Assembly: GCA_016839365.1 (NCBI GenBank)
Contig: JAEOUH010000019.1
Span: forward strand, 1 to 11,896
Direction: 5' to 3'
DNA from: Candidatus Hermodarchaeota archaeon
Lineage (GTDB): Archaea > Asgardarchaeota > Hermodarchaeia > Hermodarchaeales > Hermodarchaeaceae
Length of the DNA stretch: 11,896 nucleotides
Made by a program: the position numbers and the translations under genes. The notes under the pieces were generated by a model. It was not told the DNA's origin. It was given only the letters and a program-made list of their open reading frames with translations, and did not search any database. Shown piece after piece: positions 284 through 9,645 of the stretch (positions are counted from its first letter, which is position 1; each line of letters begins with the position of its first letter).

Positions 284-1444
284 GTGCTCAATGTAAGCAT
301 TGTTGGCGCCGGACAAACCAAGTTCGGACGTCATGACGATTACACGTTACGGGAGCTTTTCGCCCTTGCCGCCCATGAAGCCATTGAAGATGCCGGGATT
401 GCACCCAAAAATGTCGAAGCGGCCTTCATTGGTAACCTCTCGGCAGACCAATTCAACCGGCAAACCCACATCGCTCCCATGATGGTGGATGCCGCTGGTA
501 TGAAAGGCATCCCTGCCACGAAATGCGAAGCCGCATGTGCCTCATCAGCCACGGCATTACGCGCTGCGATTCTCGCTGTCGAATCTGGACATCACGATGT
601 GGTCATGGCTGCAGGTGTTGAAAAGATGACTGACCTATCAACACCAGGAGTCATCGAGACGCTAGCCATGGCTGCTGACCAACCCTTCGAGGCTGAACCC
701 GGAATTACCTTCCCAGGCATTTTCGCCCTCTTGGCCGTTGCCCATATGGCTAAATACGGCACAACAAAAGAACAGATGGCGGCTGTCGCCGTTAAGAACC
801 ATGCCAACGCGGTGCATAATCCCCTAGCTCAATATCAGAAGGAAATCACTCTGGACCAAGTCTTATCGGCGCGGATGGTTGCCTGGCCCCTTGGGCTCTT
901 CGATTGCTCACCTATCACAGATGGTGCAGCCGCAGTTATCCTCACACGAAATAAACTCGCAAAGAAATTTACCGATGCACCTGTGAAAATTAAGGCCTCA
1001 GCACAGGCCAACGACACCATGGACATGTGCGACCGTTCTGATTTAACCTCTCTTTACTCTGCGCGAACCGCAGCCCAACTGGCCTACAAACAAGCTCGAA
1101 TAGGCCCTCATGACATCGACTTTGCAGAAGTTCATGACTGCTTTACCATTGCTGAAATCATCGCCACCGAAGATCTGGGCTTCTTTTCAAGAGGAATGGG
1201 AGGACAAGCCGTCGAACAGGAATACACAGCCTTAGATGGAGAATTCGCTATCAACACCAGTGGAGGACTCAAAGCCAAGGGTCACCCTGTCGGAGCAACC
1301 GGCGTCGCCCAAATCATCGAACTATACCACCAACTCCGAAACGAAGCCGGCAAACGCCAAGTCGATAAGCCAAATTATGGACTTGCACATAATGTCGGGG
1401 GGTCTGGAGCAACAGCGGTTGTACATATTTGTGAACGATGGTGA
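284..1444 (+). CDS. Thiolase family protein (archaeal acetyl-CoA acetyltransferase, SCP2/SCP-x type)
   Basis: Motifs: CEAACASS (catalytic Cys), GVEKM, CSPITDGAAA, EVHDCF, INTSGGLKAKGHPVGATG, HNVGG. GTG start with SD. Confidence 0.95.
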   Translation: MLNVSIVGAGQTKFGRHDDYTLRELFALAAHEAIEDAGIAPKNVEAAFIGNLSADQFNRQTHIAPMMVDAAGMKGIPATKCEAACASSATALRAAILAVESGHHDVVMAAGVEKMTDLSTPGVIETLAMAADQPFEAEPGITFPGIFALLAVAHMAKYGTTKEQMAAVAVKNHANAVHNPLAQYQKEITLDQVLSARMVAWPLGLFDCSPITDGAAAVILTRNKLAKKFTDAPVKIKASAQANDTMDMCDRSDLTSLYSARTAAQLAYKQARIGPHDIDFAEVHDCFTIAEIIATEDLGFFSRGMGGQAVEQEYTALDGEFAINTSGGLKAKGHPVGATGVAQIIELYHQLRNEAGKRQVDKPNYGLAHNVGGSGATAVVHICERW

Positions 1445-1449
1445 TTAAG

Positions 1450-1854
1450 ATGAGTGAAGAAACAACTGTTAAGAAATACTTCGAGCTGATTAACGAACAG
1501 AAACTCTGTGCAGCTCATTGTGCTAGCTGTGATTCCTTACACCTTCCCCCACGGCTCTTTTGTCCGAACTGTAATAGTAAGACAACTGATTGGACACAAT
1601 TGGGTGGTGAAGGCACACTCCGTTCGTTTACGGTGATTCACATCGCAGGTACAAAGTATGCTGAGGATGTCCCGTATATTGTTGCCATCGTCGCTTTGAA
1701 GGAAGGACCTTCGGTTTGCGCACGGCTGGTGGGTGTTGATCCCCTCAAACCCGAAGACATCCATGTTGGTGATCCCGTCGTAGCTGATTTTGAAGAGCTG
1801 TCGGGATCCACTTCAGAAGAAAAAGCAACGCGTCTAGTTTTTCGGCCCGCCTGA
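1450..1854 (+). CDS. DUF35 family Zn-ribbon/OB-fold protein (thiolase partner)
   Basis: CxxC...PP...CPxC zinc ribbon followed by an OB-fold (GTLRSFTVIH, PYIVAIVAL.EG, IHVGDPV). Coupled to the thiolase. ATG 1450 is preferred over ATG 1438 because SD-like GGTGA lies at 1440-1444. Confidence 0.92.
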   Translation: MSEETTVKKYFELINEQKLCAAHCASCDSLHLPPRLFCPNCNSKTTDWTQLGGEGTLRSFTVIHIAGTKYAEDVPYIVAIVALKEGPSVCARLVGVDPLKPEDIHVGDPVVADFEELSGSTSEEKATRLVFRPA

Positions 1855-1881: not shown

Positions 1882-3210
1882 CTAGTTCTTGACCCCTAGA
1901 TAGCGAATCGTAGTAAGAGCGAAGACTTTGGTCACTTTGATCAAATCCTCTATCGCGATTTTCTCATCCGAGGTGTGCGCAGAAGCCATGTTCCCAGGAC
2001 CATATACAACCGTGGATTCAATCCCAGCACGGCGGAGCAACCTTCCATCCGTGGCAAAAGGAACAAGAAAGTATACTGTGGGACCAGTGATTTCGGTTGA
2101 CGCATTAAAAACCGTTGTCGCCAACGGATTTTGTGTGTAATTGGGCACTGAATTTCCTTCAAAGGACTCAACGATTTCGATATTGCAGTCGCCTTCAATG
2201 CCTTGTTGTTCAGCGTGCCTGCGTATGAAATCAACCATCTCTTGGGGCTTTTGACCAGGTAAAATACGGAAATCTAGCTGAGCCTCACAACGGTCTGGAA
2301 CTACGTTTGCAGCCACTCCACCAGTAATAGTCCCAATGTTCATAGTCGTTGTAGTAAGCCCTACGATTCCAGCGGACAGCGGGTTAGGCTCATCACCTTG
2401 AAAGATAAAGGATTCTAGCAGTTTTGGCTCTGTGTTCAAGCTAGCGGCAAACTGAGCAATAATCGCTTCACGGGTTATCGGGGGAGGAATTGTGGGAGGG
2501 TTTTCGGTTTGTAGCGATTCAAGCAGTTTTATCATCATCGTGACCGCATTCTTGCCGGCTGATGGAATACTGCCGTGAGCCTTCTCTCCTTTGGTGGTAA
2601 TTTTCAGCCAAACTGGTCCTTTTTCTCCAATATTCACTGCGTACCCAAAGCGGCCAATACCTGAAGGTTCAGCGATTAATGCTGCGTTGGCTTTGATTTT
2701 CTTCCAAGCCTTGTCAATGCACCACATTGTCCCTAACTTCCCTTGCCGTTCTTCATCTCCAACGGCATTAAGAATCAGAGTCCCTTTCAAGGGCACTTCC
2801 AAATCATGAAGTGCACTCATTGCCATCGCTTGGCAAGCCACCCCGCCTTTCATGTCCACGGCTCCCCGTCCATAGATCAAACCGTCACGGATTTCTGCCC
2901 CAAAGGGATCTACTGTCCAATCTTCACCAGGGGGCACCACGTCAACATGGCCATTAAACAGAATATGCTTCCCGTTATTTGCTTTCCACGTGGCGATGAG
3001 ATTATCGATGTTTGGATGAGATGAAACATATTCGGTGTCAATCCCCCGCTTTTCCAAGGTTTTTCCGACGCAATGGGCAGCCTCAGCCTCACCACGTGTT
3101 TCCCGGTCCCAGCTAGGGATTCGAATCATGTCCTGGCATAAGCGAACCAGTTCATCCTGCAGCTCATCAATATGGTTGATAACTTTTTGCTCCCAGTCAA
3201 TCACTTTCAT
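1882..3210 (-). CDS. M20 family metallo-amidohydrolase (ArgE/DapE-like deacylase/peptidase), substrate unknown
   Basis: Metal and catalytic motifs: NGHVDVVP, GRGAVDMKGG, GDEE, IAEP, AHGS, NVVPD, TDGR, GPG..AHTSDE. Confidence 0.92.
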   Translation of the reverse strand: MKVIDWEQKVINHIDELQDELVRLCQDMIRIPSWDRETRGEAEAAHCVGKTLEKRGIDTEYVSSHPNIDNLIATWKANNGKHILFNGHVDVVPPGEDWTVDPFGAEIRDGLIYGRGAVDMKGGVACQAMAMSALHDLEVPLKGTLILNAVGDEERQGKLGTMWCIDKAWKKIKANAALIAEPSGIGRFGYAVNIGEKGPVWLKITTKGEKAHGSIPSAGKNAVTMMIKLLESLQTENPPTIPPPITREAIIAQFAASLNTEPKLLESFIFQGDEPNPLSAGIVGLTTTTMNIGTITGGVAANVVPDRCEAQLDFRILPGQKPQEMVDFIRRHAEQQGIEGDCNIEIVESFEGNSVPNYTQNPLATTVFNASTEITGPTVYFLVPFATDGRLLRRAGIESTVVYGPGNMASAHTSDEKIAIEDLIKVTKVFALTTIRYLGVKN

Positions 3211-4360: not shown

Positions 4361-5845
4361 CTAGGGTTCCCATTTGAAGGGGTGTTTTGCATACTCTTTG
4401 TCGGAGAGCAGTTCATTGATGCTCGGACGTCCTTCGATGGCGCGGCGGAGGGCATGACGCATGGCCTTGTAGTTGTTAATGAGAATACGTTTCCGATCCA
4501 CTGCTGTTGGATGCACAAAAACGGTTGCAACAATTAACAATTGGTCGACAGCGGATTTGGGGATAAGTCCTTCTTCAACCGAATCCATCACCGCTTTGGC
4601 ACACCCGGTTTGAGCTGGACCACCGAATAAGCTAGCCTGGTGCATGCTCCGATTAGCTACTGTTGGTACAAGGAGGGTCTCAGGTTTGACCATGAGATTG
4701 GGTTCGAGAATAGCGAGAAGGGGCTCCATACGTTCCTTAGGTGCTGTTTTTGCCTGGGCAAAGGCATATCCCACTGGCCCGTCCTTGCGTCCAATCATTA
4801 GGTCGATATGGGCGACTTCTGCACCAGTCCCGGCAAGTCCTTCTCCTACCTTAATGGAGAAGTCTTTGATGTGCTCGGGTGTGAACCCGATGACGCCGAA
4901 TCGCGCCTCTAGAGGTTCTTTGGGCTCAACTTCAATTTTCACCGGTTTACGCTCGATTTTTCCAAGCTTCTCCAGTTCAATGCGGATTTCTTCACGGTTC
5001 TCGTAGGTGAGAACTCCGCCAAACGTTAGTGGGAGTCGGGGTTTACCCACTGGGACACCAATCATATTCAATCCGGCCTTTGTACCCACAGCTCCGGACC
5101 CCACAATTAATCTTGTGAGTTTCTGGACCTTGAGCTGCAAAGCAATAGCTTCCGCATATTTTTTGGCCTGAACTTTCTGTAACATCTCGACCCAAATGTC
5201 ACCGATGAGTTGTGCACTAGCTAGAATCGCTCCTGAACATCCTGAAGCGAGAGCTGGAAACACGACCTCGTCATGGCCGACTAATACGTTTATCTTTGAT
5301 CCGACTTTTTCCAAGACCGCAAGGATGAGTTTGAGTTGCCCGCTGGAATCTTTGAGGCCAACGATATTATCGAGGTCGGCTAAATCTTCAACTATTTGCC
5401 AGGGCATATCTAGACCCGTGCATTGGGGAATGTTGTAGAGAATAATTGGCAATCCCACCTCATTCACAAGGCGATAATGTTCGTACAATCCACGCAGGGT
5501 GGGGCGCATATAGTAGGGAGTAACTACAAGGCAGGCATCAGCCCCTGATTTCTGGGCAGATTCAACAAGCTCGATTGTTGTTTTCGTGTTACTAGCACCA
5601 GCTCCTGCGATGACGGGGACTTTTCCCGCTGCCTCCTCTATGGCAAGTTTGACCACGCGTTTGTGTTCTTCAATAGTCAAACTGGTGAATTCGCCGGTTG
5701 TTCCTGCAGGGACAAGTCCGGTGATTCCTAGATTGTCAATGCAATGGCGAATCAGCCGGCGAAATGCAGCGTCATCAACTTTTACGCCATCCTTTGTGAA
5801 AGGAGTAACTAGTGCGGGGTTAATACCGCCTGGTTTAAATCCCAT
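4361..5845 (-). CDS. Fusion protein: N-terminal DapA/NAL-family class I aldolase + C-terminal formaldehyde-activating enzyme (Fae) domain
   Basis: aa 1-~296: LVTPF, GTTGE, PYY, LYNIP (Tyr137), GLKDSSG (Schiff-base Lys165), RLPL. aa ~329-494: VGEG..G.G.EVAHIDLMIG (His346), PLLAILEPNL..KP.TL, GPAQ...AKAV.D.V.EG.IP, VFVHP, NY.A, KHPF. Single uninterrupted frame. SD AGGAG at 5855-5859 (- strand). Confidence 0.93.
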   Translation of the reverse strand: MGFKPGGINPALVTPFTKDGVKVDDAAFRRLIRHCIDNLGITGLVPAGTTGEFTSLTIEEHKRVVKLAIEEAAGKVPVIAGAGASNTKTTIELVESAQKSGADACLVVTPYYMRPTLRGLYEHYRLVNEVGLPIILYNIPQCTGLDMPWQIVEDLADLDNIVGLKDSSGQLKLILAVLEKVGSKINVLVGHDEVVFPALASGCSGAILASAQLIGDIWVEMLQKVQAKKYAEAIALQLKVQKLTRLIVGSGAVGTKAGLNMIGVPVGKPRLPLTFGGVLTYENREEIRIELEKLGKIERKPVKIEVEPKEPLEARFGVIGFTPEHIKDFSIKVGEGLAGTGAEVAHIDLMIGRKDGPVGYAFAQAKTAPKERMEPLLAILEPNLMVKPETLLVPTVANRSMHQASLFGGPAQTGCAKAVMDSVEEGLIPKSAVDQLLIVATVFVHPTAVDRKRILINNYKAMRHALRRAIEGRPSINELLSDKEYAKHPFKWEP

Positions 5846-5869: not shown

Positions 5870-6817
5870 TTAAGGCTGAGGAATGGCTAAATCCTTCGCA
5901 CCAAGCTTTGATAATTTCGCTTCTGGATAATTATCTTGGATGAGGTTCCGAACGATTTCAGCCCACTTGACTTTTTCACGTGCTAGAAAACTGAGTCCAT
6001 CAATCGATGACCAAGGTGTGTATAACGCCATGCTGGGTCCAGGTTCAAATTTATAATAAACCGGCTGAACGCATCGGGTGATTTCCGCCGCTTCATAGAA
6101 TCGATTAAAGCCTCCAAAGCTGGGCATCAACATGATGTGGATGTCAATGGGTAGGTTAGTGGCTTGACGGATGGCGGCCAGTTGAGGAATAGTCATATCG
6201 GCAACGGGGTTGAAACTCCCTGCCCCTAGCTGTTCAAGCAGTTTTCCTCCCGCTGGGGAGGCGTGGCCTGCGAAGATGCTGACTTTGAAGGTAATATCCT
6301 TGGGGATTTCACCAATCTCTTTGAGTTTATTCAATGCCCAGAGGAGTCCTTCATCAATCACTAAGAATCCTCGGAAGCCTAAATCAATACCACGTTTGAT
6401 GTCGGCAATCACTTCTACAAGCTTGTCGGCACCTCGAAATCGCATGCCTGACAAAATACCATCGGGGGTTGCCACTTGTCTGCCAACATCCCAGCTCGTG
6501 CGGGGGCCCGGTGTCAGAATAACTTCCATTTGCGCGTCATGTGCAAGTTGGGCAAATTTCTTGAGCTCTTTATCATCAAGCAGAGTGGCTCCCATCACTA
6601 CGCTGATAAGCCGATGTACTGGCATTTTTCGCTTATCAGCTTCATCGATTAGTGCTTCTAAGACCTCTGGGCGTTCGACGCCAGAGATTTCGATACGATA
6701 GCCGGCTCCATCTGGAAACCGTTTTTCGCTAGTCGGTAGATCATATGCATCTTGCCCGGGCAACCCAATTTTTTCAAGGGCTTTCCGGACCTTTTCATAA
6801 GATTTCAAACTCACCAT
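5870..6817 (-). CDS. Uncharacterised TIM-barrel protein, peptidase U32-like family
   Basis: Conserved-looking blocks (D..DLPTSEKRFPDGA.YRIEI, GPR.SWD.G, G.RGFLV.DEGLLW, FKVS, LE.LGA.SFNP, L..IR....LPID, E..R...PVY.K) that I recognise from proteins auto-annotated as U32 peptidase. Ends 24 nt upstream of the aldolase-Fae gene. The ORF is secure, the function is not. Confidence 0.65.
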   Translation of the reverse strand: MVSLKSYEKVRKALEKIGLPGQDAYDLPTSEKRFPDGAGYRIEISGVERPEVLEALIDEADKRKMPVHRLISVVMGATLLDDKELKKFAQLAHDAQMEVILTPGPRTSWDVGRQVATPDGILSGMRFRGADKLVEVIADIKRGIDLGFRGFLVIDEGLLWALNKLKEIGEIPKDITFKVSIFAGHASPAGGKLLEQLGAGSFNPVADMTIPQLAAIRQATNLPIDIHIMLMPSFGGFNRFYEAAEITRCVQPVYYKFEPGPSMALYTPWSSIDGLSFLAREKVKWAEIVRNLIQDNYPEAKLSKLGAKDLAIPQP

Positions 6818-7043: not shown

Positions 7044-8180
7044 ATGGAGATTACAGATCTTATCACACCGGCACTGATTATCGACAAAACTAAACTCCTG
7101 CGAAACATTCAATGGATGGCCGAAAAAGCGCAACGGAATGGGGTTCAGCTTCGCCCACATATCAAAACCCACAAATGCATAGAAATTGCCAATCTCCAAA
7201 ACGAGTATGGTGCAGAAGGTATCACTGTGTCCACATTGGGGGAGGCTGCCGTCTTTATAGATAATGGGTTCTCAGACGTCACCTTAGCTTACCCTGTCAT
7301 CCCAGACAAATTCTTGACCCTGCTCAAATTAGCCCAAAAAGCTCAGATAAATGTGGTTACAGATCACCCGACCGTTGCAACCCAACTCGAAGCCCAGTGT
7401 ATTGCCGCAGACAATATTCTTAATGTGTTAGTCAAAATCGACTGTGGGTATCACCGCTGTGGAGTCGACCCCAAGGATCCAATGGCACTCAAGCTCGCTA
7501 AGCAAGTCGCAGATGCTTCCCATCTCACCTTTGGGGGAATTCTAACTCATGCAGGTCATGCGTATCATGCCACTTTGCGGGAGGAAATCCAAACCATAGC
7601 GAACATTGAACAAGAAGTGATGCTTCAATTTACGAAAACACTACAAGATAACGGGCTAGCCCCTGAAACCGTATCAATCGGTTCTACTCCCACTATGATG
7701 CAGGCCCCCAACTTCAAACCGGGAATAACTGAAATCCGCCCTGGAAACTATGTTTTCTTCGATAATACCCAGGCCTTACTTGGTTCCTGTTCACTGGCAG
7801 ATTGTGCACTCACAGTACTAACAAGTGTAGTAAGTGTCCAGGATTCACATATCGTGGTTGATGCAGGAGCTACTGCCCTCTCAAAGGATGCAGGGGCCAC
7901 TCATATTTCTACACACCAAGGATATGGCCTCGTTTTCATACTTGGAGATGAATTCGAACCAACTGCAGCTCAAATCACCCAGCTTTCCCAAGAACATGGC
8001 AAAATCAAGTTCCCCAACTCCCACCACAAATCCCTCATACCTGGGGATCATCTACAAATAATCCCAAACCACTCATGCCTCACGGCTAACCTTTTTGATC
8101 AATATTACGTCATCGATAATAATCGGGTTATCACCACCTGGCCTATACACCGCAACCGGCTCCAGTCTCCTCTAGCCTAA
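7044..8180 (+). CDS. Fold-type III PLP enzyme, D-serine dehydratase (Dsd1)/D-threonine aldolase-like family
   Basis: TPALIID, LRPHIKTHK (PLP Lys), DCGYHRCG, THAGH, GSTPT, EIRPGNYVFFD, LSQEHG, IPNHSC (His/Cys Zn ligands). Confidence 0.9.
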   Translation: MEITDLITPALIIDKTKLLRNIQWMAEKAQRNGVQLRPHIKTHKCIEIANLQNEYGAEGITVSTLGEAAVFIDNGFSDVTLAYPVIPDKFLTLLKLAQKAQINVVTDHPTVATQLEAQCIAADNILNVLVKIDCGYHRCGVDPKDPMALKLAKQVADASHLTFGGILTHAGHAYHATLREEIQTIANIEQEVMLQFTKTLQDNGLAPETVSIGSTPTMMQAPNFKPGITEIRPGNYVFFDNTQALLGSCSLADCALTVLTSVVSVQDSHIVVDAGATALSKDAGATHISTHQGYGLVFILGDEFEPTAAQITQLSQEHGKIKFPNSHHKSLIPGDHLQIIPNHSCLTANLFDQYYVIDNNRVITTWPIHRNRLQSPLA

Positions 8181-8197: not shown

Positions 8198-9148
8198 GTG
8201 ACCGAAATAAAACAAACTGCGACCCTTCCTCCCTCATTACAAGAACGCTTCCAAATGCTACTAGGTGATGAATATCCACAATTCCTTGATGCGATATCAA
8301 AACCACCTACGCATTTCGTCCGAATCAATACTCTGAAAACAGATATCGATGCAGGTCTTAAGCAACTTAAGCAACTCGACATCACCTACTTACCACTCCC
8401 CTGGTACTCTGCTGGATTTCGGATATCAGGGAACCTTGAACACCTTCCCTTCACTAAAGAATATTCTCTTGGATGGTACTATATCCAAGAAGGCGGAAGT
8501 ATGCTACCCCCCGTCGTTCTCAACCCCCAATCCCACGATTCTGTCCTTGACATATGTGCTGCTCCTGGTTCAAAAACAACACAAATGGCCCAAATGATGA
8601 ACAATAAAGGAGCCATTATTGCAAACGACCGTTCCTTCCGCCGACTAACTAGTCTGGGACACAATATCCAAGTCTGCGGTATTATCAACACCATCACTCT
8701 CTGTCAGGATGGACGGCACCTTTCAACCCGGCTTCCGCTTCAGTTTGACCGAATTTCAGTTGATGTACCCTGTACTGCTTCAGGACATCTTCGGAGTAAA
8801 CCGCCACAATTTGAAGTTCCAGACCTACGACGCATCCTTGGAATACAAACCATTCAAAAAGGTCTGCTAACCGCCGCATTTCGCCTCCTCAAGCCTGAAG
8901 GCTCACTAGTCTATTCCACCTGTAGTATACACCCTGAAGAAAATGAAGCAGTGGTTGACCATCTACTTCGCAGTTCATCTGACGCGGTGTTAAAAATCCC
9001 TCAACTATCTAACTATCGCAGCCACCCCGGAATCACACAATGGAGTGACGTCCATTTTTCAGAAAAGCTTACTAAATGTTTACGCATCTACCCGCACGAT
9101 AATGACACTGACAGCTTTTTCATAGCTCTAATAAGGAAGGAGGCATGA
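8198..9148 (+). CDS. RsmB/RsmF/NOP2 family RNA cytosine-C5 methyltransferase
   Basis: RINTLK, YYIQE..S, DICAAPGSKTTQ (SAM motif I), DVPCTASG (motif IV Cys), YSTCSIHPEENE (motif VI Cys), RIYPH...DSFFIA. Confidence 0.95.
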   Translation: MTEIKQTATLPPSLQERFQMLLGDEYPQFLDAISKPPTHFVRINTLKTDIDAGLKQLKQLDITYLPLPWYSAGFRISGNLEHLPFTKEYSLGWYYIQEGGSMLPPVVLNPQSHDSVLDICAAPGSKTTQMAQMMNNKGAIIANDRSFRRLTSLGHNIQVCGIINTITLCQDGRHLSTRLPLQFDRISVDVPCTASGHLRSKPPQFEVPDLRRILGIQTIQKGLLTAAFRLLKPEGSLVYSTCSIHPEENEAVVDHLLRSSSDAVLKIPQLSNYRSHPGITQWSDVHFSEKLTKCLRIYPHDNDTDSFFIALIRKEA

Positions 9149-9645
9149 TGGCGCAAATAAAGGCATTAACTATGGATCTCGAAAGAGAAACCCATGTCTG
9201 GCAACTGCTCAAGAAACAATTTGGAATTCCTAAACTTGCAGGATATCGATTCTTGAAATCCGGGCGAAAACGAATCCGTCTAATCAGCGAAGCTGCTTTC
9301 AAACTTCTTTCCAAGCTTCCCTACACCGGAACAACAGGACTCTATATCGGTGAGTATTCACCGAAGGCCTTCCGGCTCTCAATGGATGGTGCCCAACTGC
9401 TCGGACATCATGCTACAAAACAGAAAGTGGAATTAACCGATGTTCAAGCTCAACAGTGGTTACAGGGGGAATCGGTTAATTATGAAGACATACAAAGAGG
9501 GTATGTAATCGTCATTCACAACAACACAATCCTTGGGTGCGGCAGTCTCTCTAAAGGTCTGCTTCGCAGCTTCGTTCCAAAGATCCGACGACTCAAACTA
9601 TCCGATCAGCTTCCTGGTGGAGAATGTTCATGTCAGTCACCATAA
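9145..9645 (+). CDS. Nip7-like / RsmF C-terminal PUA-domain RNA-binding protein
   Basis: GLYIGE....FRLS.DGAQLLG..ATK..VEL....A..W..GE.V, GYVIV.....ILGCG and FVPK.RR match the RsmF C-terminal/Nip7-type pre-PUA+PUA pattern. Overlaps the methyltransferase stop (ATGATG). SD AGGAGG at 9138-9143; the true start may be 9148. Confidence 0.8.
   Translation: MMAQIKALTMDLERETHVWQLLKKQFGIPKLAGYRFLKSGRKRIRLISEAAFKLLSKLPYTGTTGLYIGEYSPKAFRLSMDGAQLLGHHATKQKVELTDVQAQQWLQGESVNYEDIQRGYVIVIHNNTILGCGSLSKGLLRSFVPKIRRLKLSDQLPGGECSCQSP

Follow-up and report, generated by a model that had tools for sequence, protein, structure and literature searches.

A DapA-like aldolase fused to Fae in Asgard archaea and Bathyarchaeia: a candidate pyruvate-formaldehyde aldolase linked to tetrahydromethanopterin

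The locus and the fused protein

The stretch of DNA considered here, referred to below as the window, comprises 11,896 nucleotides from Candidatus Hermodarchaeota archaeon (contig JAEOUH010000019.1 of assembly GCA_016839365.1), whose genome is 2.2 Mb in size and 84% complete. Its minus strand carries an open reading frame (ORF) at 4361..5845 that runs uninterrupted from an ATG at 5845 to a stop at 4361-4363 and encodes 494 aa plus the stop, and in this single protein a class I aldolase of the DHDPS/NAL family is fused to Fae, the formaldehyde-activating enzyme. Pfam assigns residues 5-274 to DHDPS (E 5.7e-71) and residues 333-490 to Fae (E 1.6e-55, profile positions 1-158 of 159). On the NCBIfam fae model, TIGR03126, the fusion scores 193.2 bits against a cut-off of 118.05, over profile positions 2-160 of 160, and on the dapA model, TIGR00674, it reaches a borderline 229.8 bits against 206.15. 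The initial annotation of this stretch had described a complete aldolase barrel and a complete Fae domain in one ORF, joined by a linker of about 30 aa; its coordinates are exact, Pfam confirms both domains, and the strand is minus.

The aldolase domain, delimited by Pfam and PDB alignments and by family conservation, with codons checked, covers residues 1-300 (4946..5845, minus strand, as for all parts of the fusion). It contains the GTTGE motif at residue 48, Thr49/Thr50 (5696-5701), Tyr112, Tyr137 (5435-5437) and the Schiff-base Lys165 (5351-5353). The inter-domain linker of about 30 residues (residues 301-329, 4859..4945) is partly conserved, with E305, R315, F316, T322, P323 and F329 invariant in 12 sequences. 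The Fae domain, recognized by Pfam and NCBIfam, occupies residues 330-494 (4361..4858) and aligns end to end with the crystal structure of Methylobacterium extorquens Fae, 1Y5Y (its residues 5-166, E 1.2e-32). The histidine of VAHIDL and the GPAQ motif, which the initial annotation had reported as kept, could both be located, with VAHIDL at 344 including His346 (4808-4810) and Asp348 (4802-4804), and GPAQ at residues 409-412 (4610-4621).

A second gene (5870..6817), also on the minus strand, lies 24 nt upstream of the fusion, and GGAG precedes the fusion ATG. It encodes a 315-aa protein that is a TIM barrel in its AlphaFold2 model and weakly U32-like; the window copy gave no Pfam, NCBIfam or PDB sequence match. 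We refer to it as the partner.

The aldolase domain compared with DapA

In sequence, the N-terminal domain is nearest to DapA (DHDPS), with which it shares the barrel, the Lys/Tyr/Thr-Thr set that activates pyruvate and the Tyr contributed by the neighbouring subunit. Its closest PDB matches are all DHDPS, with about 45% of the aligned residues identical (E 6e-52), and the hallmarks of the superfamily (PF00701) are present, with GTTGE at 48 invariant and with Thr49, Thr50, Tyr137 and Lys165 invariant across 121 fused proteins. The differences lie on the acceptor side. In DHDPS, Arg138 holds the carboxylate of aspartate semialdehyde. Alignment to solved DHDPS structures places Cys142 of the fusion (5420-5422) at the position of E. 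coli Arg138, the fusion reading YNIPQCTG where DHDPS has YNIP-x-R-S, and at this position 113 of the 121 fused proteins have Cys, the others Val or Thr, and none Arg. When the aldolase domain alone was searched against 1.84 billion protein representatives, Arg was found in no fused representative, whereas most of the stand-alone neighbours of about 300 aa have Arg followed by G-D/E-D. The acceptor-site G-D-D is likewise not kept: the fusion reads G190-H191-D192, with His191 (5273-5275) in place of the first Asp, and position 191 varies among H/W/F/Y/N across the fused clade. In fused members the acceptor pocket is lined instead by residues that are small or hydrophobic, with C/V/L/T at 142 and H/W/F/Y at 191; relative to DapA, Cys, Val or Leu stands for Arg138 and G-H/W-D for G-D-D.

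Gene content sets the fusion apart from DapA as well, in that most of its hosts do not have the diaminopimelate (DAP) pathway. The fusion is the sole DHDPS-family gene in the source genome, in which, at 84% completeness, we found neither dapB nor lysA nor an Asd/ArgC domain. Among 121 Asgard genomes, dapB scores above cut-off only in the family that we designate f9, where it lies directly beside a separate dapA of about 300 aa, which reads S-R-T and G-D-D where the fusion reads Q-C-T and G-H-D. We found no dapB in 42 of the 50 fusion-bearing Asgard genomes, two closed genomes included, nor in any of 17 genomes of family f1, any of three of family f12 (two of them closed), or five fusion-bearing genomes of Bathyarchaeia, one of which is a closed chromosome. 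The initial annotation had proposed a check for a separate true dapA; none was found in the source genome, and the dapB-bearing family has one. The residue patterns and gene content thus support reading the N-terminal domain as a pyruvate-type class I aldolase rather than the DapA of the lysine pathway.

In one closed Asgard genome (G012), which carries the fusion, we observed an extra stand-alone DHDPS-like gene (L106:3973-4857) that keeps the Arg and reads G-K-D and T-A; this genome has no dapB.

Distribution

The fused architecture is common, and every database gives it the name DapA. More than 120 full-length matches with both domains were listed from independent assemblies, and the fusion is encoded in 238 species genomes, mostly of Bathyarchaeia and Asgard archaea; among the sampled Asgard genomes 50 of 121 carry it. 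This census, which the initial annotation had called for, disposes of the idea that the fusion is an assembly artefact, as the same two-domain protein recurs in independent assemblies. Full-length relatives in Asgard archaea and Bathyarchaeia range from 97 to 41% identity, and in at least two phyla the architecture is strictly maintained and the active sites of both domains are conserved. The aldolase domains of the fusions form a clade separate from DapA, in which all 14 fused representatives in our tree fall together with 98% local support. Three longer proteins matched by the aldolase domain (P0136, P0141 and P0216) showed no informative extra domain. Note that related genomes are not independent, and the co-occurrence counts given here and below describe a pattern rather than constitute a test.

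The Fae domain and tandem fusions

In single-copy fusions, His346, Asp348 and GPAQ are invariant. Further evidence comes from tandem pairs of fusions, which occur in Asgard families f6 (Thorarchaeota-like), f8 and f20, in a Korarchaeota-like contig and in one unplaced lineage (L095:7980-10868; L096-L104; L123:6528-9479; L124:6715-9398). In about 12 loci, the upstream copy is without His346/Asp348 and keeps GP(V/A/T)Q, the downstream copy keeps the His and Asp and is without GPAQ, and the aldolase Lys and Tyr are retained in nearly all copies. In the Fae structure, H4MPT (tetrahydromethanopterin) binds between subunits of the pentamer. Reciprocal motif decay of this kind would be expected if the two Fae motifs meet across a subunit interface, and it suggests that the paired copies may form an obligate hetero-oligomer. 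It also indicates that the Fae site of the fused protein is under selection, and by its motifs the C-terminal domain looks like a functional Fae.

The source genome has mch, mer, mtd and ftr, all above cut-off, and is thus not devoid of the H4MPT enzymes on which the chemistry put forward in the initial annotation depends. A bona fide Fae-Hps is encoded by another of its genes (593.7 bits on NF009833, cut-off 274).

In family f6, two large ORFs without a Pfam family (about 870 and 815 aa) lie directly upstream of the tandem pair (L097:2484-7543, with equivalents in L098-L103).

The partner TIM barrel

The 315-aa partner adjoins the fusion in 15 loci of five Asgard families and in several Bathyarchaeia. 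A protein of about 430 aa without a Pfam family stands in its position in 60 of 74 Bathyarchaeia loci and in family f9. The two forms align by hhalign (73%, E 3e-5) around a common FK(V/I)S-x-x-AG motif and are probably homologous, if distantly related, and AlphaFold2 predicts both to be TIM barrels (pLDDT 79 for the 315-aa and 82 for the 430-aa form). A barrel of one form or the other is found in 48 of the 50 fusion-bearing Asgard genomes, both forms together in none, and within family f9 all nine genomes that bear the fusion have the 430-aa form, which the six others lack. The fusion and the partner barrel are best explained as a two-gene module.

The function of the barrel is less readily read from its relatives. 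Foldseek and VIA-align matches of both forms include class II aldolases, CutC, pyruvate kinase, BKACE and glutamate mutase, and a profile of the 430-aa form gave no match against the PDB. Matches in the Atlas are U32-like bacterial clusters without names, and peptidase U32 (PF01136) is matched weakly by 5 of 11 partner members (best E 2.8e-4), the window copy not among them. Characterized U32 enzymes bind Fe-S through Cys residues; the window partner has one Cys, and its match to the U32 protein Mk0906 (Z 12.8) is no better than that to many other barrels. Prediction of a complex between fusion and partner returned a score of 0.00, which counts neither for nor against binding.

Two variations in the surroundings of the barrel may be recorded here. 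In the closed Asgard genome G012, a TnpB/Cas12f-like gene is inserted between partner and fusion (L087:6344-7807). In family f6, the 430-aa barrel is divergent from a gene for a ThrC-like pyridoxal phosphate enzyme fused to a PadR DNA-binding domain (L117:5715-7193, also L118 and L119), and in the same loci it lies beside an ECF-transporter S component.

An alternative operon and the candidate substrate

The barrel also occurs apart from the fusion. Thirteen Asgard genomes have the 430-aa form and no fusion, and 11 of these 13 have hom. In six such loci from families f4, f21 and f24, the barrel heads a tightly packed operon followed by a class I aminotransferase, a homoserine dehydrogenase (Hom; 415 bits on NF004912, cut-off 373) and an aldehyde:ferredoxin oxidoreductase (AOR) (L111:6304-13325, also L112-L116), with an MFS transporter after the AOR in two of the six. 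We did not find asd in family f4, and the operon may represent an Asd-independent link between aspartate and homoserine by way of the AOR. Transamination of 4-hydroxy-2-oxobutanoate (HOB) gives homoserine, and its retro-aldol cleavage gives pyruvate and formaldehyde. Given that the barrel is joined either to the aldolase-Fae fusion or to the aminotransferase-Hom-AOR set, HOB is the simplest intermediate that the two could share.

Proposed reaction and direction

We consider it an even chance that the fusion is a bifunctional enzyme that interconverts HOB with pyruvate and formaldehyde and exchanges the one-carbon (C1) unit with H4MPT. The N-terminal domain would be a class I aldolase that uses pyruvate, is derived from the DHDPS family and has lost the binding of aspartate semialdehyde. 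HOB would form a Schiff base on Lys165, with Tyr137, Thr49 and Tyr112 of the neighbouring subunit acting as in DHDPS, and the formaldehyde freed in the retro-aldol step would enter a pocket that Cys142 and His191 (Val or Leu and Trp or Phe in relatives) make narrower. The Fae domain would then take over this formaldehyde and condense it with H4MPT, and the resulting methylene-H4MPT would feed the mtd/mch/ftr/mer branch of the source genome. The partner barrel would make or use HOB. As a speculation on assembly, a D5 decamer would suit a pentameric Fae together with a dimeric aldolase interface.

As to direction, archaeal Fae-Hps runs towards the release of formaldehyde. This analogy, together with the homoserine-using enzymes that were not found and the catabolic look of the operon with AOR and transporter, somewhat favours cleavage of HOB with capture of formaldehyde over synthesis. 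More broadly, HOB could be an undescribed metabolic node in Asgard archaea and Bathyarchaeia, fed or drained by the new TIM-barrel family and then either split by the fusion into pyruvate and methylene-H4MPT or turned into aspartate, with homoserine and aspartate semialdehyde as intermediates, by the aminotransferase, Hom and AOR with no Asd. We put this wider proposal forward tentatively and regard it as more doubtful than the chemistry of the fusion.

Several points weigh against the proposed chemistry. The dapA model TIGR00674 still scores the fusion above its cut-off. Kinship among the genomes makes the two-by-two counts of fusion and partner overstate their association, and the fold of the partner matches generic TIM barrels only (best Z 14.9 for the 315-aa and 12.2 for the 430-aa form). 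The substrate assignment proceeds by guilt by association, and no natural source of HOB was found in these organisms. Finally, the operon aminotransferase could be an aspartate aminotransferase, in which case the node shared by the two gene sets would be homoserine rather than HOB. The substrate suggested in the initial annotation thus gains indirect backing from the operon of the partner, qualified by the possibility that homoserine holds this position.

Alternative explanations

The alternative that departs least from this proposal keeps the chemistry and reverses its purpose. Formaldehyde derived from methylene-H4MPT would be added to pyruvate, and the resulting HOB would be transaminated to homoserine for threonine and methionine, in the manner of a homoserine cycle. 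We regard this as unlikely, its share being counted within the even chance given to the chemistry as a whole. In its favour, both asd and hom are missing from 32 of the 50 fusion-bearing Asgard genomes, and in family f9 hom is present in five of six genomes without the fusion but in two of nine with it. ThrC-like genes scoring about 200 bits occur in the source genome's own family, and on one short contig a stand-alone member of the aldolase clade sits between an aminotransferase and a ThrC-like gene. However, canonical homoserine kinase (thrB) is above cut-off in ten Asgard genomes and MetX is matched in six, none of them with the fusion, and Hom is found in only 8 of the 50 fusion-bearing genomes, these eight having fusion and hom together. 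The f9 genomes without hom are also without the 240-bit ThrC, the closed fusion-bearing Bathyarchaeia chromosome has neither hom nor a ThrC match above cut-off, and the other operon of the partner looks catabolic, with its AOR and, in two loci, an MFS transporter. The neighbours of the source genome's own ThrC-like gene were uninformative. Since canonical ThrB and MetX were not found in fusion-bearing Asgard genomes and Hom is confined to the eight, the assimilatory reading is weakly supported; of the homoserine-cycle-like role envisaged in the initial annotation, what stands is the joint absence of asd and hom and the presence of ThrC-like genes, and the onward enzymes do not bear it out.

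It is also conceivable, though we consider it quite improbable, that the aldolase acts on another 4-hydroxy-2-oxo acid, such as a 2-keto-3-deoxy sugar acid, 4-hydroxy-2-oxoglutarate or 4-hydroxy-2-oxovalerate, and that Fae serves assembly, regulation or general detoxification of formaldehyde. Enzymes of the DHDPS/NAL family cleave many such acids, the acceptor-pocket residues 142 and 191 vary among fused members, and the Fae-Hps of the source genome already handles formaldehyde. On the other hand, a Fae with an incidental role sits poorly with a fusion that at least two phyla have strictly retained together with its two active sites, and the reciprocal loss of Fae motifs in paralogue pairs points to selection on a functional Fae site. 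The polar acceptor residues have given way to bulky or hydrophobic ones, as would suit a very small aldehyde, and the association of the partner with homoserine dehydrogenase suggests a C4 skeleton.

The name that databases give to the protein would make it a true 4-hydroxy-tetrahydrodipicolinate synthase (DapA) to which a Fae domain has been added. The TIGR00674 score, the DHDPS structures among its best PDB matches and its standing as the sole DHDPS-family gene of the genome speak for this, yet the equivalent of Arg138 and the G-D-D are lost throughout the fused family, no dapB, lysA or asd was found in the source genome, and a separate canonical dapA lies beside dapB wherever the latter exists. 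We therefore reject true DapA identity, which is largely refuted and in our estimate very improbable.

Least credible of all is a substitute for PanB (ketopantoate hydroxymethyltransferase) that transfers C1 from H4MPT onto 2-oxoisovalerate, which we reject because PanB itself (PF02548), whose analogous transfer from methylene-tetrahydrofolate had made the idea worth raising for archaea that use H4MPT, is present in the source genome (C43:3725-4465) and in most fusion-bearing genomes (16 of 17 in f1, 15 of 17 in f6), with no complementary distribution.

Relation to known systems

The closest described system is Fae-Hps in logic and DHDPS in sequence. Like the fusion, Fae-Hps (NF009833) of methanogens and other archaea joins Fae to an aldolase-type enzyme that releases or consumes formaldehyde, in coupling with H4MPT. 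It differs in that its partner domain is Hps, of the orotidine monophosphate decarboxylase fold, and not a Schiff-base pyruvate aldolase of the DHDPS family, in that its Fae is N-terminal rather than C-terminal, and in its substrate, a hexulose phosphate in place of the C4 2-oxo acid proposed for the fusion. The fusion reaches only 161.9 bits on NF009833, by way of its Fae part alone, and has no Hps domain.

Among aldolases, archaeal 2-keto-3-deoxygluconate (KDG) aldolase and E. coli YagE and YjhH belong to the superfamily of the fusion; as class I pyruvate lyases they split 4-hydroxy-2-oxo acids and thereby set an aldehyde free. HOB is formally the C4 member of this series of acids, although this is a lead only. 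The fusion scores low on the model for this group, however (Arch_KDGaldase, 102.7 bits against a cut-off of 390), and we know of no Fae fusion to any aldolase of 2-keto-3-deoxy sugar acids. The reaction proposed here, pyruvate plus formaldehyde to HOB and back, is also that used in the synthetic homoserine cycle, where the HOB aldolases (e.g. E. coli RhmA) are promiscuous, metal-dependent class II enzymes and HOB is called a non-native metabolite (PMC8879981; PMC10992282); by contrast, the fusion would be a dedicated class I enzyme with a built-in link to H4MPT. A genomic study of Bathyarchaeia counted fae as formaldehyde detoxification and did not mention the fusion (PMC10321748). In line with the statement in the initial annotation that no characterized protein of this architecture was known to it, the literature we searched yielded no description of an aldolase-Fae protein or of a natural H4MPT-linked HOB aldolase.

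Other genes of the window and its relatives

Downstream of the fusion and convergent with it lies a CitG-family gene (PF01874; 3330..4313, plus strand) that scores below all NCBIfam CitG/MdcB cut-offs and is conserved beside the fusion in the Hermod-like family only. Its link to the module is uncertain; a connection between CitG and H4MPT in methylotroph genetics could not be documented and is a lead only. An M20 deacylase of the ArgE/DapE family (1882..3210, minus strand) is found again close to the fusion in two Asgard families, f1 and f6, with differing gene orders.

Divergent from the partner gene, at 7044-8180, is a gene resembling D-threonine aldolase/D-serine dehydratase (PF01168 and PF14031). 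It is BhcC-like (171 bits against a cut-off of 690), is confined to the window and its closest relative, L007, and is probably not part of the module. Next to it in the window is the gene of an RNA methyltransferase of the RsmB/F type, with the PUA domain encoded by an ORF of its own (8198-9148 and 9145-9645, overlapping by 4 bases), a split that is also seen in a related Hodarchaeota/Promethearchaeota contig (L004:7362-8794). At the other end of the window (284-1854), a thiolase gene overlaps a DUF35-type zinc-ribbon/OB-fold gene, in the pairing typical of archaeal acetoacetyl-CoA thiolases; every Hermod-like locus shows the same synteny. In 63 of the 74 Bathyarchaeia loci, a TrmI/GCD14-like methyltransferase gene begins about 10 bases after the fusion on the same strand (e.g. 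L013:11486-12271), which is probably a case of a tRNA enzyme hitch-hiking in the operon.

Implications

Asgard archaea and Bathyarchaeia are among the most abundant archaea of sediments. As hundreds of archaeal genomes carry the fusion under the name DapA, metabolic reconstructions may credit these organisms with a lysine step that is absent and miss a reaction linked to C1 metabolism. If the proposed chemistry is true, the fusion would be a dedicated natural pyruvate-formaldehyde aldolase wired to H4MPT, which would be of interest to synthetic methylotrophy, with its current reliance on promiscuous class II aldolases and free formaldehyde. If it is true in the reverse direction, this would be the first natural enzyme to fix a C1 unit of the Wood-Ljungdahl pathway directly onto pyruvate, and the natural equivalent of the engineered homoserine cycle. 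The partner barrel and its alternative operon with Hom and AOR point to a C4 pathway in these archaea that has so far gone unrecognized.

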